Virus record (IMG/VR): IMGVR_UViG_3300027763_000029
Reading direction: 5' to 3' (one strand)
DNA: 64,000 nucleotides
From: a virus
Below the pieces are notes generated by a model, which was not told the origin of the DNA, did not search any database, and saw only the letters and a list, made by a program, of their open reading frames with translations. The position numbers and the translations under genes are program-made. Below are positions 53,046 through 60,398 of this stretch, piece after piece. How positions within the stretch are numbered: position 1 is the stretch's first letter; the number at the start of each line of letters is the position of its first letter.

Positions 53046-54168
53046 TCAAGCAAAACTGAAATACGTTTCAGATGCTTTATGTGAAAATATTGAAGAACTT
53101 CTAGACACTCTAGGAATAGAGGGGTATAAGAATCTTGGTAAGCTTATTGCTATGAGTTGTCCAATTCATGGTGGAGATAATGAGTCTGCACTTAATATTT
53201 ATCATCAAGGTGACTCATATAGAGGTAACTGGAAGTGTAGAACTCATCAGTGTGAAGAAACATTTAAAGGATCAATTATAGGATTCATTAGAGGATGTTT
53301 ATCTCACAATACTTATGGTTGGGTAAAGTCTGGAGATAAGCTATGCTCATTCAAAGAAGCGCTAGATTTTGCAACAGCTTTTATACGAGAAGATTTTTCT
53401 AGCATAAAGATATCGAGAAAAGCTAAAGAAAAAACGGCCTTTGTTAATACGGTTAAATACATTAGCAACAATAATCAAGACGATAGTCCAAAGATATCAA
53501 AAGATGTAATTAGGAGAAGTCTATCTATTCCTTCTGATTATTTTCTTAACAGAGGATTTTCCGCCCTAACTCTGAACAACTATGATGTAGGAGACTGTCG
53601 GGTTCAAGGTAAAGAGATGAATGGGAGGGCCGTGGTTCCGATATACGACCCTGATTTTAAATACATGGTCGGTTGTACCGGACGAAGTATATATGAGAAA
53701 TGCCCACAATGCAAAGCATACCACGACCCAAAAACAAGCTGTCCATCTGCTGATTCTTTATGGAAATACTCAAAATGGAGACATAATACTGGATTTAAAA
53801 CCCAAGAACATTTGTATAATTTTTGGATTGCACAGCATAGAATCAAAGAAACATCATGCGTTATTCTTGTTGAAAGCCCAGGAAATGTTTGGAGATTGTC
53901 TGAAGCGGGTATACTTAATGCTGTAGCAATATTTGGCTCATCATTGAGTGATCGTCAGAAAATGATTTTGGACACTTCTGGTGCCATGACCATTATTACT
54001 ATAATGGACAATGACGATGCTGGTCAAAAGGCGGCTATTCAAATAAAGCAGAAATGCGAAAAAACATATAATATCAAAAATATCTCTCCTAGTAAAGAAG
54101 ACATAGCTTCAATGAGTATTGAAGAAATTAATAACGAAATTAAACCTCTAATTAAAGACTTTATATGA
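53014..54168 (+). CDS. dnaG: DnaG-type DNA primase
   Basis: CPIH..DN.SA Zn finger, RAVVPI, GCTGR, TOPRIM LVES...MDND.AG. Confidence 0.88.
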   Translation: MNKIKKSHSYDQAKLKYVSDALCENIEELLDTLGIEGYKNLGKLIAMSCPIHGGDNESALNIYHQGDSYRGNWKCRTHQCEETFKGSIIGFIRGCLSHNTYGWVKSGDKLCSFKEALDFATAFIREDFSSIKISRKAKEKTAFVNTVKYISNNNQDDSPKISKDVIRRSLSIPSDYFLNRGFSALTLNNYDVGDCRVQGKEMNGRAVVPIYDPDFKYMVGCTGRSIYEKCPQCKAYHDPKTSCPSADSLWKYSKWRHNTGFKTQEHLYNFWIAQHRIKETSCVILVESPGNVWRLSEAGILNAVAIFGSSLSDRQKMILDTSGAMTIITIMDNDDAGQKAAIQIKQKCEKTYNIKNISPSKEDIASMSIEEINNEIKPLIKDFI

Positions 54169-54887
54169 TCATAGGATTTTCAGGAAAAAAGCAGTCGGGC
54201 AAGAGTACATCGAGCAATTTTATAATCTCCCTATTTATTGCTCAATTAGAAATAGCTCAAAAGGTATCAATAAATCCAAATGGACAAATAGTAGTTTCGG
54301 ATCTTTTAAATGATAGAAACTATGCTGGAATATTCGATCTATCTAATATTAATAGAAATGACTTTATACTAAATAAGGTAGTTGAAAAATTAGAGAAACA
54401 CATTAAAGTATATAGTTTTGCTGATCCACTAAAAAAAGATATTTGTATGAATATCCTGGGACTAACGTATGAACAATGTTATGGATCAGATGAAGAAAAA
54501 AATACCTTAACAGACTTAACATGGGATGATAAACAGCTTTCTGGAAGAGAGGCTATGGAAATTATTGGAACCAATATTTTTCGTACTCTTAAAAATAATG
54601 TTTGGGTAGAAGCAACCATAAAAAAGATCAAAGAAGAAAAACCTTCCATAGCTATTATCGCTGACTGTAGATTCCCAAACGAAGCTGATAGTATTAAGAC
54701 AGAGGGTGGTAAGGTACTTAGATTAACCAGAAATCCTTTTAATTCATCAGCCAAAGCTGAAGTAGCATTGGATAAAGAAAACTATGATTGGTCTAATTTT
54801 GATTATATTTGCGATAATGAAAATATGAACATATATGATCAATGCATGGATATACAAAAATTTTTACAGGAGATTCTACCATTATAG
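54165..54887 (+). CDS. Deoxynucleoside monophosphate kinase
   Basis: GFSGKKQSGKST, SFADPLK, R..M...GT...R, DCRFPNE. Confidence 0.88.
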   Translation: MIIGFSGKKQSGKSTSSNFIISLFIAQLEIAQKVSINPNGQIVVSDLLNDRNYAGIFDLSNINRNDFILNKVVEKLEKHIKVYSFADPLKKDICMNILGLTYEQCYGSDEEKNTLTDLTWDDKQLSGREAMEIIGTNIFRTLKNNVWVEATIKKIKEEKPSIAIIADCRFPNEADSIKTEGGKVLRLTRNPFNSSAKAEVALDKENYDWSNFDYICDNENMNIYDQCMDIQKFLQEILPL

Positions 54888-55924
54888 TCACATACTTTAG
54901 AAGTAGTTCATATAACACACACTCAATGTGCGAGCAGCAATATTTTCTCGAATATGTTCTTGGCTATCGTGGTCCATCGGGCCAAAAAGCCGATAAAGGA
55001 ACCATAGTTCATAAAGTCTTAGAAATACTAGCAGTTATAAAAAAGGCACAGCAAGATGATGTTAAAGTTATCGATGATGATGTGGTAGGAAAAGTAAATA
55101 TCTCAAACTATAGCTTGAATGTTATTATAGAGGAAGTATATAAGCATTATTCAGAAGCTAATTCTCATCACAAGTGGGCATTGAAAGACTATAAAGATTG
55201 TCACGCATGGGTTTACAAAGCAATAGAATTTAATGATGGTATGTTCGATCCAAGGAATAGACATATACTATGTCCAGAGCAACATTTTGATATCGAGATT
55301 AAAAAACCTTGGGCAGCATATTCTTATGATACTCCAGAAGGTAAGCTAGAAGGTAATTTGGGTATTAAGGGTACTATAGACCTTATAACCTTAGTAAACG
55401 ACAATACTATTGAAATTATTGACTGGAAAACTGGTAGAAGATTAGATTGGGCGACTGGTAAGGAAAAGACCTTAGAAAAACTACAGACTGATCCACAGTT
55501 AAGAATATATCATTATGCTATTAGTCATTTGTATCCTCACATAGACCACATTATATTTTCTATCTATTTTATCAATGACGGTGGACCTTTTTCGATATGT
55601 TTTGATAAATCAGATCTTTCTAAGACAGAGGATATGTTACGTCAAAAATTTGAGGTGGTTAAGAATACAAGAAGGCCAAGACTTAATAAAACTTGGATGT
55701 GTACAAAATTATGCCATTTTGGTAAAACAACATTCGACAATACTCACATACAACCGCAAGTAGAATATAGAGAAAATCAAACTTGCAGTCTTGGTTCAAC
55801 AATGACAAAATGTGAACAAATTAAACATGATATTGATCTGAATGGTATGGATTCTGTTGTAAAAGAGTATAAGAATAAGAATCACTCATTTGCAAAGTAC
55901 AAAGCACCCGGAACCACAGAATGA
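54881..55924 (+). CDS. PD-(D/E)XK nuclease (RecB/Cas4-like); probable ATT start
   Basis: SSSYN...C, GTIVH..LE, GTIDL...IIDWKTG, QLRIY, C..LC; SD AGGAG 8 nt before ATT at 54881. Confidence 0.8.
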   Translation: MIVTYFRSSSYNTHSMCEQQYFLEYVLGYRGPSGQKADKGTIVHKVLEILAVIKKAQQDDVKVIDDDVVGKVNISNYSLNVIIEEVYKHYSEANSHHKWALKDYKDCHAWVYKAIEFNDGMFDPRNRHILCPEQHFDIEIKKPWAAYSYDTPEGKLEGNLGIKGTIDLITLVNDNTIEIIDWKTGRRLDWATGKEKTLEKLQTDPQLRIYHYAISHLYPHIDHIIFSIYFINDGGPFSICFDKSDLSKTEDMLRQKFEVVKNTRRPRLNKTWMCTKLCHFGKTTFDNTHIQPQVEYRENQTCSLGSTMTKCEQIKHDIDLNGMDSVVKEYKNKNHSFAKYKAPGTTE

Positions 55925-55936
55925 TATTTCGGTCGC

Positions 55937-55964
55937 TTGACAACACCCGTTCGTATCGTACAAT
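55937..55964 (+). promoter_or_regulatory. Sigma70-like promoter TTGACA-N16-TACAAT for dnaE-N
   Basis: Intergenic, ~60 nt upstream of ATG 56024. Confidence 0.65.
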
Positions 55965-55971
55965 ACATCGA

Positions 55972-56076
55972 GTCAGTTTCTCATTGACCCACCCCCAAAA
56001 TACCAAAAGAAGGAAAATAAAAGATGGACGTGAATAAGAGGTATATTCCTCTGCACGTCCATTCTTAAGTGGGTCA
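55972..56076 (+). promoter_or_regulatory. Structured dnaE leader/recoding element
   Basis: Nested pairings TGACCCAC(55985-92)/GTGGGTCA(56069-76), ATGGACGTG(56024-32)/CACGTCCAT(56054-62), AGAGG(56037-41)/CCTCT(56048-52). Confidence 0.65.
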
Positions 56077-57909
56077 CACTACTCACTTTTGGATGGACTA
56101 TCTAAGCCTGCACAAATTGCAAAAAGATGTAATACTCTTGGAGTAACTTCGTGTGCAATTACTGACCACGGAACAATATCTGGAACTGTGCAGTTTTACC
56201 AGTCAATGAAATCTAATGGTATCAAACCCATTTTAGGTTGTGAACTATATATCAGCGAAGATGATTCTCACATAAAGACTAAAGAAAATAGTAAGCTTGG
56301 ACATTTTATAGTTTTAGCTAAGAATAAAAAGGGATGGGCTAGTTTAATCAGAATAATATCTGAATCTAATAGTAAGCATAATTTTTATCATAAGCCAAGA
56401 TTGAGCTTTAATAGATTACAAGAATTCTTAGATGGTAATCTAATTGGTTTTTGTGGTCACTTAGGATCAGTATTAGCAAATAAGATACTAAGATCCAAAG
56501 ATGATTCCGAAAAAGAAGCTATTGAAATGATAGCTAAGATGAAGGATATGTTTGGTAAAGATAATTTCTTTCTAGAGTCTCAACTCATGGATAGAGAACA
56601 TATACCAGAACAGATTCAGTTAACAGATTTGATAAGAAAACTTGGATCAATAACTAAAACAAAAGTAATATGCACACCAGATGCTCATTATTGCGATAAA
56701 TCTGATGCTGTTGATCAAAGGATCCTTTTATGTAATAATCTAAAGACTACTCTTGTTGATATCAATAAAAAGATACTTAATAATGAAGATGTTCCTATGG
56801 GATGTTTTTTTAAGTCAGATAATTATTACATATTGTCTCCAGAAGAAATGGCTGATTTACACACTCAAGAAGAAATAGATAATACTAATCATGTAGATTC
56901 TATGATAGAGTCATATGATATTCTAAATAAACCTGCTCTTCCAAATTTTGAATGTCCAAAAGGATTTAATCCAGATGAATATCTAAGAGAATTATGCAGA
57001 AATGGTTGGAGAGATAAGATAGCCAATAATATTCCAAAGGATAAACAACAAATCTATGTTGATAGAATTAAGGAAGAATTGGATGTTTTGCAGGGCGCTG
57101 GGCTGTCCAGCTACTTTCTTATCATTCAAGACATACTTAACAATGTAAAGTCTAATAATTGGCTTCCGGGACCAGGAAGAGGATCTGCTGCTGGATGTTT
57201 AGTATCCTACTTAATAGGAATTACTGCTATAGATCCTATAAAGTATGATCTATTGTTCAGTAGATTTTATAATTCTGGTCGAAATACTGCTGACCGTATT
57301 TCCATGCCAGATATAGATGTTGATGTACCAATTAACAAAAGAGAAGAAATCATCTCATATATTAAAAATAAGTATGGAAGCAATAAGGTATCTCAAATGA
57401 TAACTTATAATACTATGAAAGGCCGTGGAGCCTTAAAGGAAGTATTAAGAGTATATGGCAACGTGGCATTTGAAGAGATGAATCGTATAACAAAATACAT
57501 CCCGGATGAAGCAAAAATTGCAGACGAATTGCAAGAAATGAAAGAAGATACTGGCGAAGCATCCATTATTCGTTGGGCATTAGAAAACAATGTTGACAAA
57601 CTCAAGGAGTGGTGCTATATTAATGAGGAAGGAGAATTAGCCGGTCCTCTGGCCAAGCGTTTTGAACAGGCTATTCGTTTGGAAGGAACTAAATCTAATC
57701 AATCAAAACACGCTGCTGGTATTGTAATTAGTATAGATGAATTGAGTAATGTTTGCCCCATGATTTATGATTCAAAAAATGATCAACTTATTGCGGGCAT
57801 GGAAATGCAGGACCTGGAATCTTTGGGTGTAATTAAATTTGATATTCTAGGCGTAGCTATGCTAGATAAGATTATGACTATTTCTGACCTATTAAAAAAT
57901 GGAGAATAA
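56024..57909 (+). CDS. dnaE: DNA polymerase III alpha, N-terminal subunit (PHP + palm), interrupted by an 11-nt insert at 56066-56076
   Basis: MDVNKRYIPLHVHS* in one frame, then HYSLLDGLSKP..TDHG..GCE..DAHY..GRGSAAG..PDIDVD..KHAAG..KFDILG in the -1 frame. Confidence 0.9.
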
Positions 57910-57911
57910 CC

Positions 57912-58088
57912 ATGGAAAAGACTTTCGGTGAAGTAGCGGTAGGAGAAAATTTTAGCGTAAATGGTTCTGAGTATACCAAGGTAAATGCTGTAAAAGTTAG
58001 TTGTTGTCAGTCTATTAATGCTCATTTGGTAGATGACGCTAACTCAAGAGTATTTTTTACCGATAACCTAATGGTGGTGGTCAATTAA
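57912..58088 (+). CDS. Small beta-rich protein (58 aa), not in the ORF track
   Basis: SD GGAG; MEKTFGEVAVGENFSVNGSEYTKV...; TAATG coupling to the exonuclease. Confidence 0.65.
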   Translation: MEKTFGEVAVGENFSVNGSEYTKVNAVKVSCCQSINAHLVDDANSRVFFTDNLMVVVN

Positions 58089-58783
58089 TGCCTAATTTTC
58101 AAAAAATTTGTGTTTTCGATCTGGAGACTGACGGTATTAATCCAGAGAAATGTAGTCCTGTTCAGATAGCTGCCATAATTATAGATCCTCTTAAACTACA
58201 AGTAGTGCCAGACTCCGAGTTTAATATTAGTATTAAGCCAGAAGCATTGATAGATAATCCAGAATATGACTATGCAGATAGTGATGTGTTGGATTTTCAT
58301 GCAAAGGTGAGAGGTTCTTCTAAAGAGGATATTCTAAAAGAATGGAAGTCTTATCAGAAGCAGGATCATGGATGGAAAATGTTTACATCATACCTGGATA
58401 TGTATCATACAAGATCCGAAAGAAAATCTTGTTTTAGTGCTCCCATTGCTGCGGGATATAACATAAATAGGTTTGATCTGAAAATTATTGAGAGACTTAG
58501 TACAAAATATGACAATCTCAATAAAGAGGGCAAGTCTAGTCTATTTTATCCTAGAGATGTTGTAGACTTGATGAATATGGTATTTTATTGGTTTGAAGGT
58601 AACAATGAGCTTAAAAATTATACTCTAGATAATCTTAGAGATTATTTAGGTATATCAAAAGAAGGTGCTCATGATGCTCTGAAAGACGTAAAAGATACTG
58701 CTGATATATTAATTAGGTTTTTAAAATTGCATAGGAATTTATCTAACAAGATAAAATTTAAGGGGTCATTTGCGAATGTCTGA
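58088..58783 (+). CDS. DEDDh 3'-5' exonuclease (DnaQ/epsilon-like)
   Basis: VFDLETDG, GYNINRFD, AHDALKDV. Confidence 0.9.
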   Translation: MPNFQKICVFDLETDGINPEKCSPVQIAAIIIDPLKLQVVPDSEFNISIKPEALIDNPEYDYADSDVLDFHAKVRGSSKEDILKEWKSYQKQDHGWKMFTSYLDMYHTRSERKSCFSAPIAAGYNINRFDLKIIERLSTKYDNLNKEGKSSLFYPRDVVDLMNMVFYWFEGNNELKNYTLDNLRDYLGISKEGAHDALKDVKDTADILIRFLKLHRNLSNKIKFKGSFANV

Positions 58784-60398
58784 TTTTTTTGCGTTTGATT
58801 GCGGTTGTAAGTTTAAAGTAATAGACAATTCTGGCGATATTCCAAAAATAGATTTCTCTGCTAATATAGAGAATCTTAATTTGGAGTGTCACAGAACTTG
58901 GGACTTGATATCCGAAGGTAATACTAAAGGATGTTTTCAGTTGGAGTCTAGGCTCGGGCAAATGATGGCTAAAAAACTTAAGCCAGAAAATATTGAACAG
59001 TTATCTGGGTTGATAGCTATTCTTAGACCAGGATGCTTAGAGTCTGTAAGAGATGGCAAGAGTATTACCAATCATTATATAGATAAGAAAAATGGATTGG
59101 AAAGTATTGACTATTTTCATATGGCATTAGAACCAGCATTAAAGACAACATATGGAGAGATGATATACCAAGAAGAGAGTATGCAGATCGCCCATGATAT
59201 TGCAGGATTTGATCTGCAGGAAGCTGATATGTTAAGAAAGGCTATTGGAAAAAAGAAGCCAGAAGAAATGGCTAAATTGAAGAAAAAATTCTTAACAGGA
59301 TCCAAAGAAAAGAATATCGTAACAGAGGATCAGGCAGAAGAAATCTTTGGCTGGATTGAAAAATCACAAAGATACTCTTTCAATAAGTCACACAGTATAA
59401 GTTATGCTATGAACGCATATCTCTCAGCTTATACAAAAGCACACTTCTCCAGGATATTCTTTGCATCATATTTAAAGTTTGCTAAAGACAAGATAGATCC
59501 TCAGCAAGAGATAAAAGAATTGGCAAGAAATGCTAATGAGATGGGTATTGATGTTAGATTACCAGATCTACGCAATCTTAATAAGAATTTCTTCATTAAA
59601 GATAAGAATATATATTTTGGATTAACAGATATCAAAGGTGTTGGAGATTCTGTATTTAAAAAGTTGCTAGAACTTAATGAGCAAAAAGATATTAGTTCAT
59701 TAGGATATATTCAAAGCATCTGTCACATATTACTGAATATTAACTCAACAGCTGCAAAAGCTCTTGTTGGTAGTGGCGCTCTGGATTATTTTAGAAAAAA
59801 TAGAACTGAAATACTTTTTCATTACGAAATATTGTCATCTCTAACCAAGAAAGAGTTAGAACTATTTGCGGGCCTTATAAGTGATAAGCCTACATCAGAT
59901 ATAAAGGTCGTACTACAAGCATTGCTTAATGAAAAGATAACAAAAAAGAGAATAGAGCCAATTTCTAACTTAATAAGATCACTGGAGCATCCTCCTTATT
60001 CATTAACAGATAAGATAGAATGGTTATCTGATTCAGAAAACTCTTTTCTGGGTGTAGCCATATCTTGCTCTAAATTAGACTCTTATGATATTAGTATGAC
60101 CAATACTAATTGTAAAGAATTTAAAACTACGCTACTATCAGAAAAAATAATCTTAGCCGGTGAAGTTAGCAATGTAAATATTATTAAGACAAAAAAGGGA
60201 AAAAATCCAGGACAAGAAATGGCATTTGTTAGTGTTGAAGATGCTTATGGTCTATTGGATTCTGTTATCTTTTTCCCGGAACAATTAGAGACATATAAGC
60301 ACCATCTATTCCAAGGTAATGTGCTAATTTTTATTGGCAACAAAACAAAAACAAAGGATGGTTTGGTTGTCGATAAGTGTTTTACGCCGAGATCTTGA
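58776..60398 (+). CDS. dnaE: DNA polymerase III alpha, C-terminal subunit (fingers, HhH, OB-fold)
   Basis: GCFQLES, RPG, TYG.MIYQE, ADMLRKAIGKK, YSFNKSH, GLTDIKGVG, MAFVSVED. Confidence 0.92.
   Translation: MSDFFAFDCGCKFKVIDNSGDIPKIDFSANIENLNLECHRTWDLISEGNTKGCFQLESRLGQMMAKKLKPENIEQLSGLIAILRPGCLESVRDGKSITNHYIDKKNGLESIDYFHMALEPALKTTYGEMIYQEESMQIAHDIAGFDLQEADMLRKAIGKKKPEEMAKLKKKFLTGSKEKNIVTEDQAEEIFGWIEKSQRYSFNKSHSISYAMNAYLSAYTKAHFSRIFFASYLKFAKDKIDPQQEIKELARNANEMGIDVRLPDLRNLNKNFFIKDKNIYFGLTDIKGVGDSVFKKLLELNEQKDISSLGYIQSICHILLNINSTAAKALVGSGALDYFRKNRTEILFHYEILSSLTKKELELFAGLISDKPTSDIKVVLQALLNEKITKKRIEPISNLIRSLEHPPYSLTDKIEWLSDSENSFLGVAISCSKLDSYDISMTNTNCKEFKTTLLSEKIILAGEVSNVNIIKTKKGKNPGQEMAFVSVEDAYGLLDSVIFFPEQLETYKHHLFQGNVLIFIGNKTKTKDGLVVDKCFTPRS

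Follow-up and report, generated by a model that had tools for sequence, protein, structure and literature searches.

Utilised translational bypassing is known from only a few natural cases, namely gene 60 of phage T4 and its homologues (with gaps of 20-50 nucleotides (nt), in topoisomerase genes only), the byps of yeast mitochondria and probably the Streptomyces phage phiHau3, to which the literature adds synthetic stop hops; neither a hop in dnaE nor a natural family of short stop hops was found in the PubMed Central and bioRxiv literature. In gene 60 the take-off codon, with a stop codon behind it, is located on the 5' side of a stem-loop, the driver is a further stem-loop at the 5' end, and the arrangement belongs to a MobA cassette (bioRxiv 10.1101/2022.08.31.505936; 10.1101/2024.12.09.627546), which combines an endonuclease gene, a cassette-encoded new gene start and the bypass, the nuclease often being lost (bioRxiv 10.1101/2022.08.31.505936). 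Pairing of the mRNA exiting the ribosome has been proposed as the forward drive (bioRxiv 10.1101/2024.12.09.627546), and following ribosomes lower bypassing by blocking the 5' stem-loop (bioRxiv 10.1101/2022.08.31.505936; 10.1101/2024.12.09.627546). Low-level stop hops were seen in Escherichia coli test constructs, a single amino acid being specified there by 9 nt (Weiss et al. 1987, reviewed in PMC5009743), and the 2016 Atkins review states that shorter counterparts of bypassing had long been presumed, natural in-frame stop hops being unknown (PMC5009743). Here we describe an element at the 5' end of the dnaE gene of an uncultivated virus, IMG/VR record IMGVR_UViG_3300027763_000029, from which a stretch of 64,000 nt (hereafter the window) was analysed. 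The sequence comparisons suggest, with a confidence that we would call moderate, that the element is a short programmed translational bypass driven by switching hairpins, and that it forms part of a mobile hop cassette inserted at the start of the phage polymerase gene.

In the window (all coordinates on the + strand) a first open-reading frame (ORF) of 14 codons, MDVNKRYIPLHVHS, opens at ATG 56024 behind a Shine-Dalgarno sequence, GAAGGA, at 56009-56014, and ends with TAA at 56066-56068; by alignment this ORF (56024-56068 with its stop) encodes the HxH strand of the DnaE PHP domain. The DnaE frame picks up at CAC 56077 as HYSLLDGLSKP... and runs to 57909, by homology the N-terminal half of the DNA polymerase III (Pol III) alpha subunit, yet an ORF finder calls its start no earlier than TTG 56089. 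The PHP-domain motif HxHS-HYSLLDG is broken by 11 untranslated bases at 56066-56076, which begin directly after a Ser codon, TCT 56063-56065 (the proposed take-off codon), and consist of TAAGTGGG and then TCA, the proposed landing codon. Deletion of these 11 bases in silico restored HVHS-HYSLLDG, the motif being unbroken in Taq Pol III alpha and in gap-less relatives (aligned to Taq via a gap-less homologue, L004). The two non-contiguous ORF parts jointly encode a conserved DnaE, and codon comparison indicated that both are under purifying selection. The later PHP ligand motifs TDHG, CELY, GHFIVL and PDAH are, from our reading of the ORF by eye, presumably intact in the window protein. The nearest protein-level matches to this DnaE were those of a Bacillus phage and of gut viromes at ~33% identity, and no known phage matched the window at the DNA level.

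A protein-based search of IMG/VR returned 58 loci whose DnaE N-terminal halves were 64-98% identical. In 39 of them (class A) the gene is gap-less and its ATG overlaps the stop codon of an upstream PD-(D/E)XK nuclease gene (ATGA), whilst the remaining 19 (class B) possess their own Shine-Dalgarno sequence (AAGGAG, 8-10 nt before the ATG of the first ORF), an extended N-terminus and, always at the same codon, a gap that opens with a stop. Pattern scans brought class B to 53 distinct variants, 49 of which were used for many of the counts given here, and tree-based comparisons were made between 41 class B and 30 class A alleles. A metagenome scan with a relaxed pattern added one further variant, and a scan with a pattern for the hairpins only added three (with TGA stops) and found no hairpin that lacked a gap. 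The two classes are intermingled on the DnaE tree, where well-supported branches force at least nine changes.

The take-off Ser codon is TCY in 52 of the 53 variants (TCA in one) and is followed directly by a stop in all of them, which is TAA in 26, TAG in 24 and TGA in three. The hop, counted from the Ser codon up to the triplet that precedes the resume codon, spans 7, 8, 9, 10, 11 and 12 nt in 1, 3, 11, 18, 19 and 1 variants, respectively, so that all three frame relations occur, and the gaps that happen to be in frame keep the stop too. The triplet ahead of the resume codon reads TCN in 33 variants (TCT to TCA in the window), ACT in ten, GCY in nine and TGA in one, and the resume codon specifies His in 38, Met in 14 and Glu in one. 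As judged from codon use, selection acts at the amino-acid level on both flanks of the gap: YxPLHVHS is kept in the first ORF of all variants, with five synonymous codons for Leu and two for Pro, and after the gap the Ser and Leu residues are written with three and four codons, changes that are silent in the DnaE frame and would alter the amino acid in either of the other frames. Positions 2-6 of the first-ORF peptide vary, as dictated by RNA pairing. In 21 of 49 variants, the window included, no ATG, GTG or TTG precedes the Tyr-Ser-Leu codons in the DnaE frame.

No single mechanism of frameshifting or readthrough accounts for gaps that range over 7-12 nt and all three frames and invariably come with a Ser codon and a stop. 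Frameshifting (-1, +1 or +2) and stop readthrough were ruled out on these grounds and by the lack of a slippery site, as was stop-codon reassignment, given that all three stops are used and most gap lengths are not multiples of three; gene decay does not fit these facts either. A Shine-Dalgarno-like role of the gap was excluded as a general feature, since gaps such as TAACGACT and TAGCGATCT are without the motif and gap sequence instead varies in step with the Ser-Leu codons. What does fit the gap facts is a hop of the peptidyl-tRNA-Ser, and its product would have a spacing identical to that of class A and of solved Pol III alpha structures. The variants that resume at ATG are L062, L066-L068, L073, L074, L084, L085, L091, L095, L096, L106, L110 and L114, mostly on deep branches of the midpoint-rooted DnaE tree. 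The divergent locus L157 (3752-3792, - strand) reads TCA-TGA-GTGA-GAA, a 7 nt hop with TGA as the pre-resume triplet and Glu as the resumed residue (HVHS-EYSLLDG).

Three helices, all conserved with covariation, surround the gap. The first, H1 (56024-56062), is a hairpin in which the start codon pairs with the His-Val-His codons next to the take-off codon, with a 9 bp (base pair) lower stem, 56024-56032 with 56054-56062, and an upper stem, 56037-56041 with 56048-56052; it alone folds at -18.9 kcal/mol. The lower stem is 99% paired across 49 variants and covaries at one position (G-C in 28, A-U in 18, G-U in three), where a Val/Met difference in the peptide follows a synonymous His change, and the upper stem is found in most variants in a shifting register (63% paired). 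Gap alleles form eight or nine of the nine lower-stem pairs in 41 of 41 cases, compared with two to six in the 30 gap-less alleles, three MMDV alleles being scored at their second ATG. The second helix, H2 (56067-56088; -7.7 kcal/mol alone), pairs the stop and gap (56067-56074) with the Tyr-Ser-Leu codons (56081-56088), leaving a loop, 56075-56080, made up of bases two and three of the landing codon, the whole resume codon CAC and the opening base of the Tyr codon. H2 has 5-8 bp in 46 of 49 variants, a single mismatch interrupting the stem in the other three, and synonymous changes in its coding 3' arm are matched in the non-coding 5' arm (GTG/CAC, GAG/CTC, GCG/CGC, ACG/CGT); in variants with TGA stops GAGTG pairs with CACTC. 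The third, H3, joins GTCCATTC at 56057-56064, a strand that comprises most of the 3' arm of H1 and 2 nt of the take-off codon, to GGATGGAC at 56091-56098, which covers the third base of a Leu codon, the Asp and Gly codons and the first base of the next Leu codon. Its 8 bp close H2 into a 16 bp extended stem-loop at 56057-56098, with a computed fold of -22.7 kcal/mol, and in this model the take-off codon sits on the 5' side of the H3 and H2 stem-loop, the top hairpin of which starts at the stop codon.

All eight H3 pairs are possible in 41 of 41 class B alleles, including 15 unbiased alleles found by protein search, against 3-7 in the 30 class A alleles. Third-position entropies of the Leu-Asp-Gly codons are 0, 0 and 0.4 in class B and 1.4, 0.9 and 1.6 in class A, whilst the codons flanking them are equally diverse in both classes; the invariance is therefore attributable to local selection, and a co-conversion tract as its cause was ruled out by the same diversity of the neighbouring codons. 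The segment from the start codon to the Leu codon has a median fold of -23.6 kcal/mol (z = -5.0) in class B compared with -1.05 kcal/mol (z = 0.6) in class A. Mapped on the DnaE tree, the presence of the hairpins changes in step with that of the gap in 8-9 independent contrasts (p = 0.008 for H1, ~0.004 for H3). G-U wobbles are frequent in all three helices (H1 has 19 such cells, H2 over 30, and one U-G pair of H3 is invariant), which argues for selection on the + strand RNA and not on DNA repeats. RNAalifold on the 49-row alignment returned H3 as its only consensus helix; H1 and H3 are mutually exclusive and indels blur the H2 columns, and H2 was accordingly counted with a register-aware script. 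One gap-less locus (L048:2947-3012) has its own Shine-Dalgarno sequence and an N-terminus of cassette length (MTTGGKYTPLHVHSHFS), lacks all three helices and is sister to L036, which bears a gap; apparently the gap was here lost precisely in nature and the hairpins then decayed. A scan of the window for further twin hairpins around stops gave weaker matches only, probably by chance.

H1 and H3 share the GTCCAT strand and cannot coexist. When each state was enforced in the 49 variants, the median energy was -28.0 kcal/mol for H1 with H2, in which the start codon is paired, and -27.1 kcal/mol for H3 with H2, in which it is free, the difference having a median of -0.8 and a range of -5.0 to +3.9 kcal/mol. 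The shared strand and about equal stability imply two mRNA states with the start codon closed or open, and in these folding models the H1/H3 pair is the signature of a bistable element.

We propose that ribosomes would start at ATG 56024 and read the 14 codons of the first ORF until TCT 56063 occupies the P site and TAA the A site, whereupon the peptidyl-tRNA-Ser would release, the mRNA would slide by 11 nt and the tRNA would re-pair at TCA 56074 (an NCN triplet in the relatives). Decoding would resume at CAC 56077 and yield an uninterrupted HVHS-HYSLLDG, the hop product having the junction peptide ...PLHVHSHYSLLDGLSK. Ribosomes may load on the open (H3) state and then melt H3 and H2, after which the 9 bp lower stem of H1 could re-zip behind the paused ribosome, pull ~9-11 nt of mRNA through and so drive the hop; its closure would also shut the start codon until the RNA re-equilibrates, keep following ribosomes off the 5' arm and space the ribosomes. 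Coupling of initiation with the hop, an idea raised in an earlier sequence-only reading of the window, is plausible. Its strongest form, in which the H1/H3 toggle acts as a ribosome-reset ratchet, H1 re-zipping both setting the ~9-11 nt hop and closing the start so that one ribosome at a time occupies each mRNA, is a tentative extension and may well be wrong. If it were true, the element would be an RNA module, portable and complete in itself, by which a homing-endonuclease cassette can break into an essential motif and leave the gene functional, and a minimal natural system in which to study what drives ribosome sliding.

In six class B loci an ORF of ~240 amino acids (aa) lies between the nuclease gene and the first ORF (L013:2227-2949, L063:795-1523, L073:2539-3258, L084:4134-4850 on the - strand, L093:1316-2053 and L096:1582-2343). 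Its product has an N-terminal helix-turn-helix region and matches phrog_3322 (1e-22), the HNH family phrog_374 and the endonuclease VII family phrog_1035; on these similarities the HNH/endonuclease VII-like protein is likely to be the homing endonuclease of the cassette. The ORF ends 10-17 nt past the ATG of the first ORF and out of frame with it (...NKENIKYGRE*), which places the Shine-Dalgarno sequence and the 5' arm of H1 inside its last codons. Shortened remnants occur in L095, L067 and L132, and the gene is missing from the window itself. There, a 38 aa ORF at 55921-56037, which begins at the ATG used to start dnaE in gap-less relatives, ends ...IKDGRE* 14 nt past the new ATG, in the same frame and position as the endonuclease C-terminus, and looks from these similarities like a deletion remnant of the endonuclease gene. 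A mobile arrangement of this kind, like that of T4 mobA and gene 60, explains the patchy distribution of the gap on the DnaE tree.

The resemblance to T4 gene 60 and MobA (see also PMC5462505) is close: one protein is encoded by two ORFs, a stop stands right after the take-off codon, the take-off codon is located 5' in an extended stem-loop whose top hairpin starts at the stop, a separate 5' stem-loop is present, the gene has a new start overlapped out of frame by an HNH-type gene that is often lost, and the whole is patchily distributed among related phages. The two differ, however, in the host gene (here the PHP motif of dnaE, there the large subunit of topoisomerase II), in the gap (7-12 nt of unrelated sequence, compared with 50 nt, or 20 nt in the Aeromonas clade) and in the landing codon, which lies here in the apical loop and there beyond the hairpin, and is here often a two-of-three match. 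The nascent chain of 14 residues showed no KKYK-type signal, and the 5' hairpin, which in gene 60 stands 9 nt upstream, here abuts the take-off codon (0 nt), includes the start codon and has one strand in common with the extended stem-loop. The dnaE cassette is a counterpart that would work like MobA/gene 60, not a member of that family.

The stop hops of E. coli constructs are alike in that a peptidyl-tRNA makes a short hop over a stop to a similar codon a few bases downstream, but those sites are synthetic, whereas the dnaE site is natural, conserved, flanked by covarying structures and located in an essential replication gene. Unstimulated, such construct hops reportedly proceed at roughly the percent level. 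The terminase gene of phiHau3 and the mitochondrial byps of Magnusiomyces capitatus also have short coding gaps that are bypassed (PMC10732093; PMC5009743), and in the byps too take-off and landing codons are not always perfect matches. The phiHau3 case differs in depending on a rare UUA codon in the A site and the byps in being apparently independent of mRNA context, and neither has twin or switching hairpins or involves a start codon. In attenuator-type leaders (trp, erm) the 1:2 and 2:3 helices are mutually exclusive. As in the dnaE element, the strand in the middle is shared, pairing in turn with a partner on its upstream and on its downstream side, and translation of a short ORF remodels the fold, but here there is no terminator and no downstream start is unmasked, the proposed output being a hop within one gene. 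The dnaE element would supply a natural short stop hop with dozens of natural 'mutants' (7-12 nt, every frame, three compensating helices), and at a size of ~75 nt from start codon to H3 it is small enough for the driver of unidirectional ribosome sliding to be directly testable in a small reporter. It would also indicate that a selfish endonuclease cassette can occupy the metal-binding motif of a replicative polymerase.

Several points weigh against the hop. A full match between the landing triplet and the take-off Ser codon is found in only 33 of 53 variants, those with ACT, GCY or TGA allowing two-of-three pairing at best; the nascent chain at take-off is only 14 residues long; and we know of no precedent for landing inside the apical loop of a hairpin. 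Part of the variants were gathered with DNA patterns that fix GTCCATTC and TGGATGG, so that for these positions only the 15 distinct alleles from the protein search are unbiased, and the driving and spacing roles of H1 and H3 are ones that we infer by analogy. Finally, the resume codon exposed in the H2 loop is ATG in 14 variants, and ten have an in-frame GTG; in these variants independent initiation after the gap is possible. The gene might on that account be truly split with no hop at all, the 14-residue peptide being released, DnaE arising by re-initiation or independent initiation (at ATG or GTG, here at TTG 56089) and the hairpins coupling or throttling the two. That ATG falls exactly at the resume codon in 14 of 49 variants, where a change from His to Met takes three base changes, may point to a start codon having been selected; a second split already exists further downstream in dnaE; and post-termination 70S ribosomes are described as able to slide and re-initiate (PMC11194080). 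We nevertheless regard a split gene as unlikely, since the 21 variants without a canonical start before the Tyr-Ser-Leu codons vary there only synonymously, YxPLHVHS is under amino-acid selection even in the first ORF of the ATG variants, and a split would leave a PHP barrel short of its first strand and of two metal ligands, which sits badly with all of the later ligands having been kept, as read by eye. Excision of the 11 nt from the RNA, as a micro-intron or an editing-type deletion with the hairpins that bracket the gap marking the cut sites, is scarcely credible: an Rfam search gave no relevant family match, gap length and sequence vary freely so long as pairing with the Ser-Leu codons holds, and an invariant Ser codon followed by a stop is the signature of translation and not of splicing. 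We also know of no mechanism that removes 7-12 nt in bacteria or phages. The inverted repeats could instead act in DNA, as an immunity or recognition site for the endonuclease or as a cruciform, the RNA folds being incidental. The linkage of the cassette to an HNH endonuclease gene is consistent with this, as is the gap breaking very conserved DNA, which by analogy with MobA may make a good homing target; but the tolerated G-U pairs would correspond to A-C mismatches in the complementary strand or a cruciform, and immunity needs an interruption and not three covarying helices, so that a purely DNA-level explanation seems very unlikely, although a role in DNA and one in RNA are not mutually exclusive.

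The remaining alternative concerns the leader. The sequence-only reading had placed a nested RNA structure here, its outer stem tying TGACCCAC in the leader (55985-55992), downstream of a promoter, to its exact complement in the insert, GTGGGTCA (56069-56076), and its inner pairing burying the start codon, and had seen in this a cis-acting switch coupling initiation with a hop or a splice. All the complementarities that it listed are there: both strings, the inner pair ATGGACGTG (56024-56032) and CACGTCCAT (56054-56062), AGAGG (56037-56041) opposite CCTCT (56048-56052) and the sigma-70-like promoter TTGACA-N16-TACAAT at 55937-55964, with 11 of 12 consensus positions, were confirmed in the sequence, and RNAfold of 55965-56100 reproduced the nested fold at -39.7 kcal/mol (z = -3.97). 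The burial of the start codon by a pairing linked to the insert also held up, H1 being present in every gap allele and in no gap-less one (at least eight independent contrasts), and covariation was found in the inner hairpin. The tie to the leader did not survive comparison. The closest relatives (L001-L003; 95-98% protein identity) have the same promoter, with both hexamers retained and a differing spacer, the same leader and an identical gap, but read TGAGCCTC at the outer stem, with two uncompensated mismatches, and fold into H2; the promoter is missing from the remaining relatives, most of which lack such a leader. No complement of at least 8 nt between leader and gap was found in the other 48 variants, and the conserved partner of the insert is the Tyr-Ser-Leu codons.

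A functional, lineage-specific layer in which this stem keeps both the gap and the closed state locked and the promoter-proximal hairpin competes with it is nevertheless conceivable. The exact 8 bp GC-rich complement stands in a genome of 33% GC (41% in this region), and complements of at least 8 nt arose in 1.5% of shuffled leaders and at 3.3% of random window places with the same geometry. The leader is the minimum-free-energy partner of the gap in the window: H1 with the outer stem folds at -40.1, H1 with H2 at -38.2 and H3 with H2 at -36.3 kcal/mol, the outer stem thus competing with H2 and winning, with a pair probability of 0.87 (0.71 on the shorter segment 55965-56100). It does so at the expense of the conserved partner of the gap, however, and with the mismatches in close relatives this makes such a layer improbable in our view; the stem reads as a coincidence, or at most as a very recent modifier of this genome outside the device. 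Of the complementarity that had been called unusual for an AT-rich genome, the inner hairpin is far beyond chance and the outer stem only marginally so. The competing hairpin GTCAG (55972-55976) with TTGAC (55984-55988), which had been thought to free the outer stem, exists (four Watson-Crick pairs and one G-U) but is window-specific, and is relevant only if the outer stem is; the real competitor of H1 is the downstream GGATGGAC, which was absent from that account. What stands is an RNA device linked to the insert that buries the start codon, in which the leader has no part. The splice found no support, the span of 7-12 nt in all three frames favouring a hop over it. A complementarity seen in a single genome was here misleading, and comparative data relocated the real switch.

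The gene order is the same in both classes, consisting of primase, dNMP kinase, nuclease, the N-terminal half of dnaE, a 58 aa ORF, a DEDDh exonuclease, the C-terminal half of dnaE and SSB. In the window the dNMP kinase (PF21448) is encoded at 54165-54887 and the PD-(D/E)XK nuclease (PF12705) at 54842-55924, and no tRNA genes were found in the 64 kb. The window dnaE (56024-60398) is split a second time, between the regions of the KFDILG and CFQLES motifs, where no intein was seen and where the 58 aa ORF (57912-58088) and the DEDDh exonuclease gene (58088-58783) lie between the halves; this second split is common to gap-bearing and gap-less relatives (all 14 loci examined). In L013 (6639-7556) and L048 (6621-7517) the C-terminal half is broken by LAGLIDADG endonuclease-like ORFs, a second kind of mobile element in the same gene.

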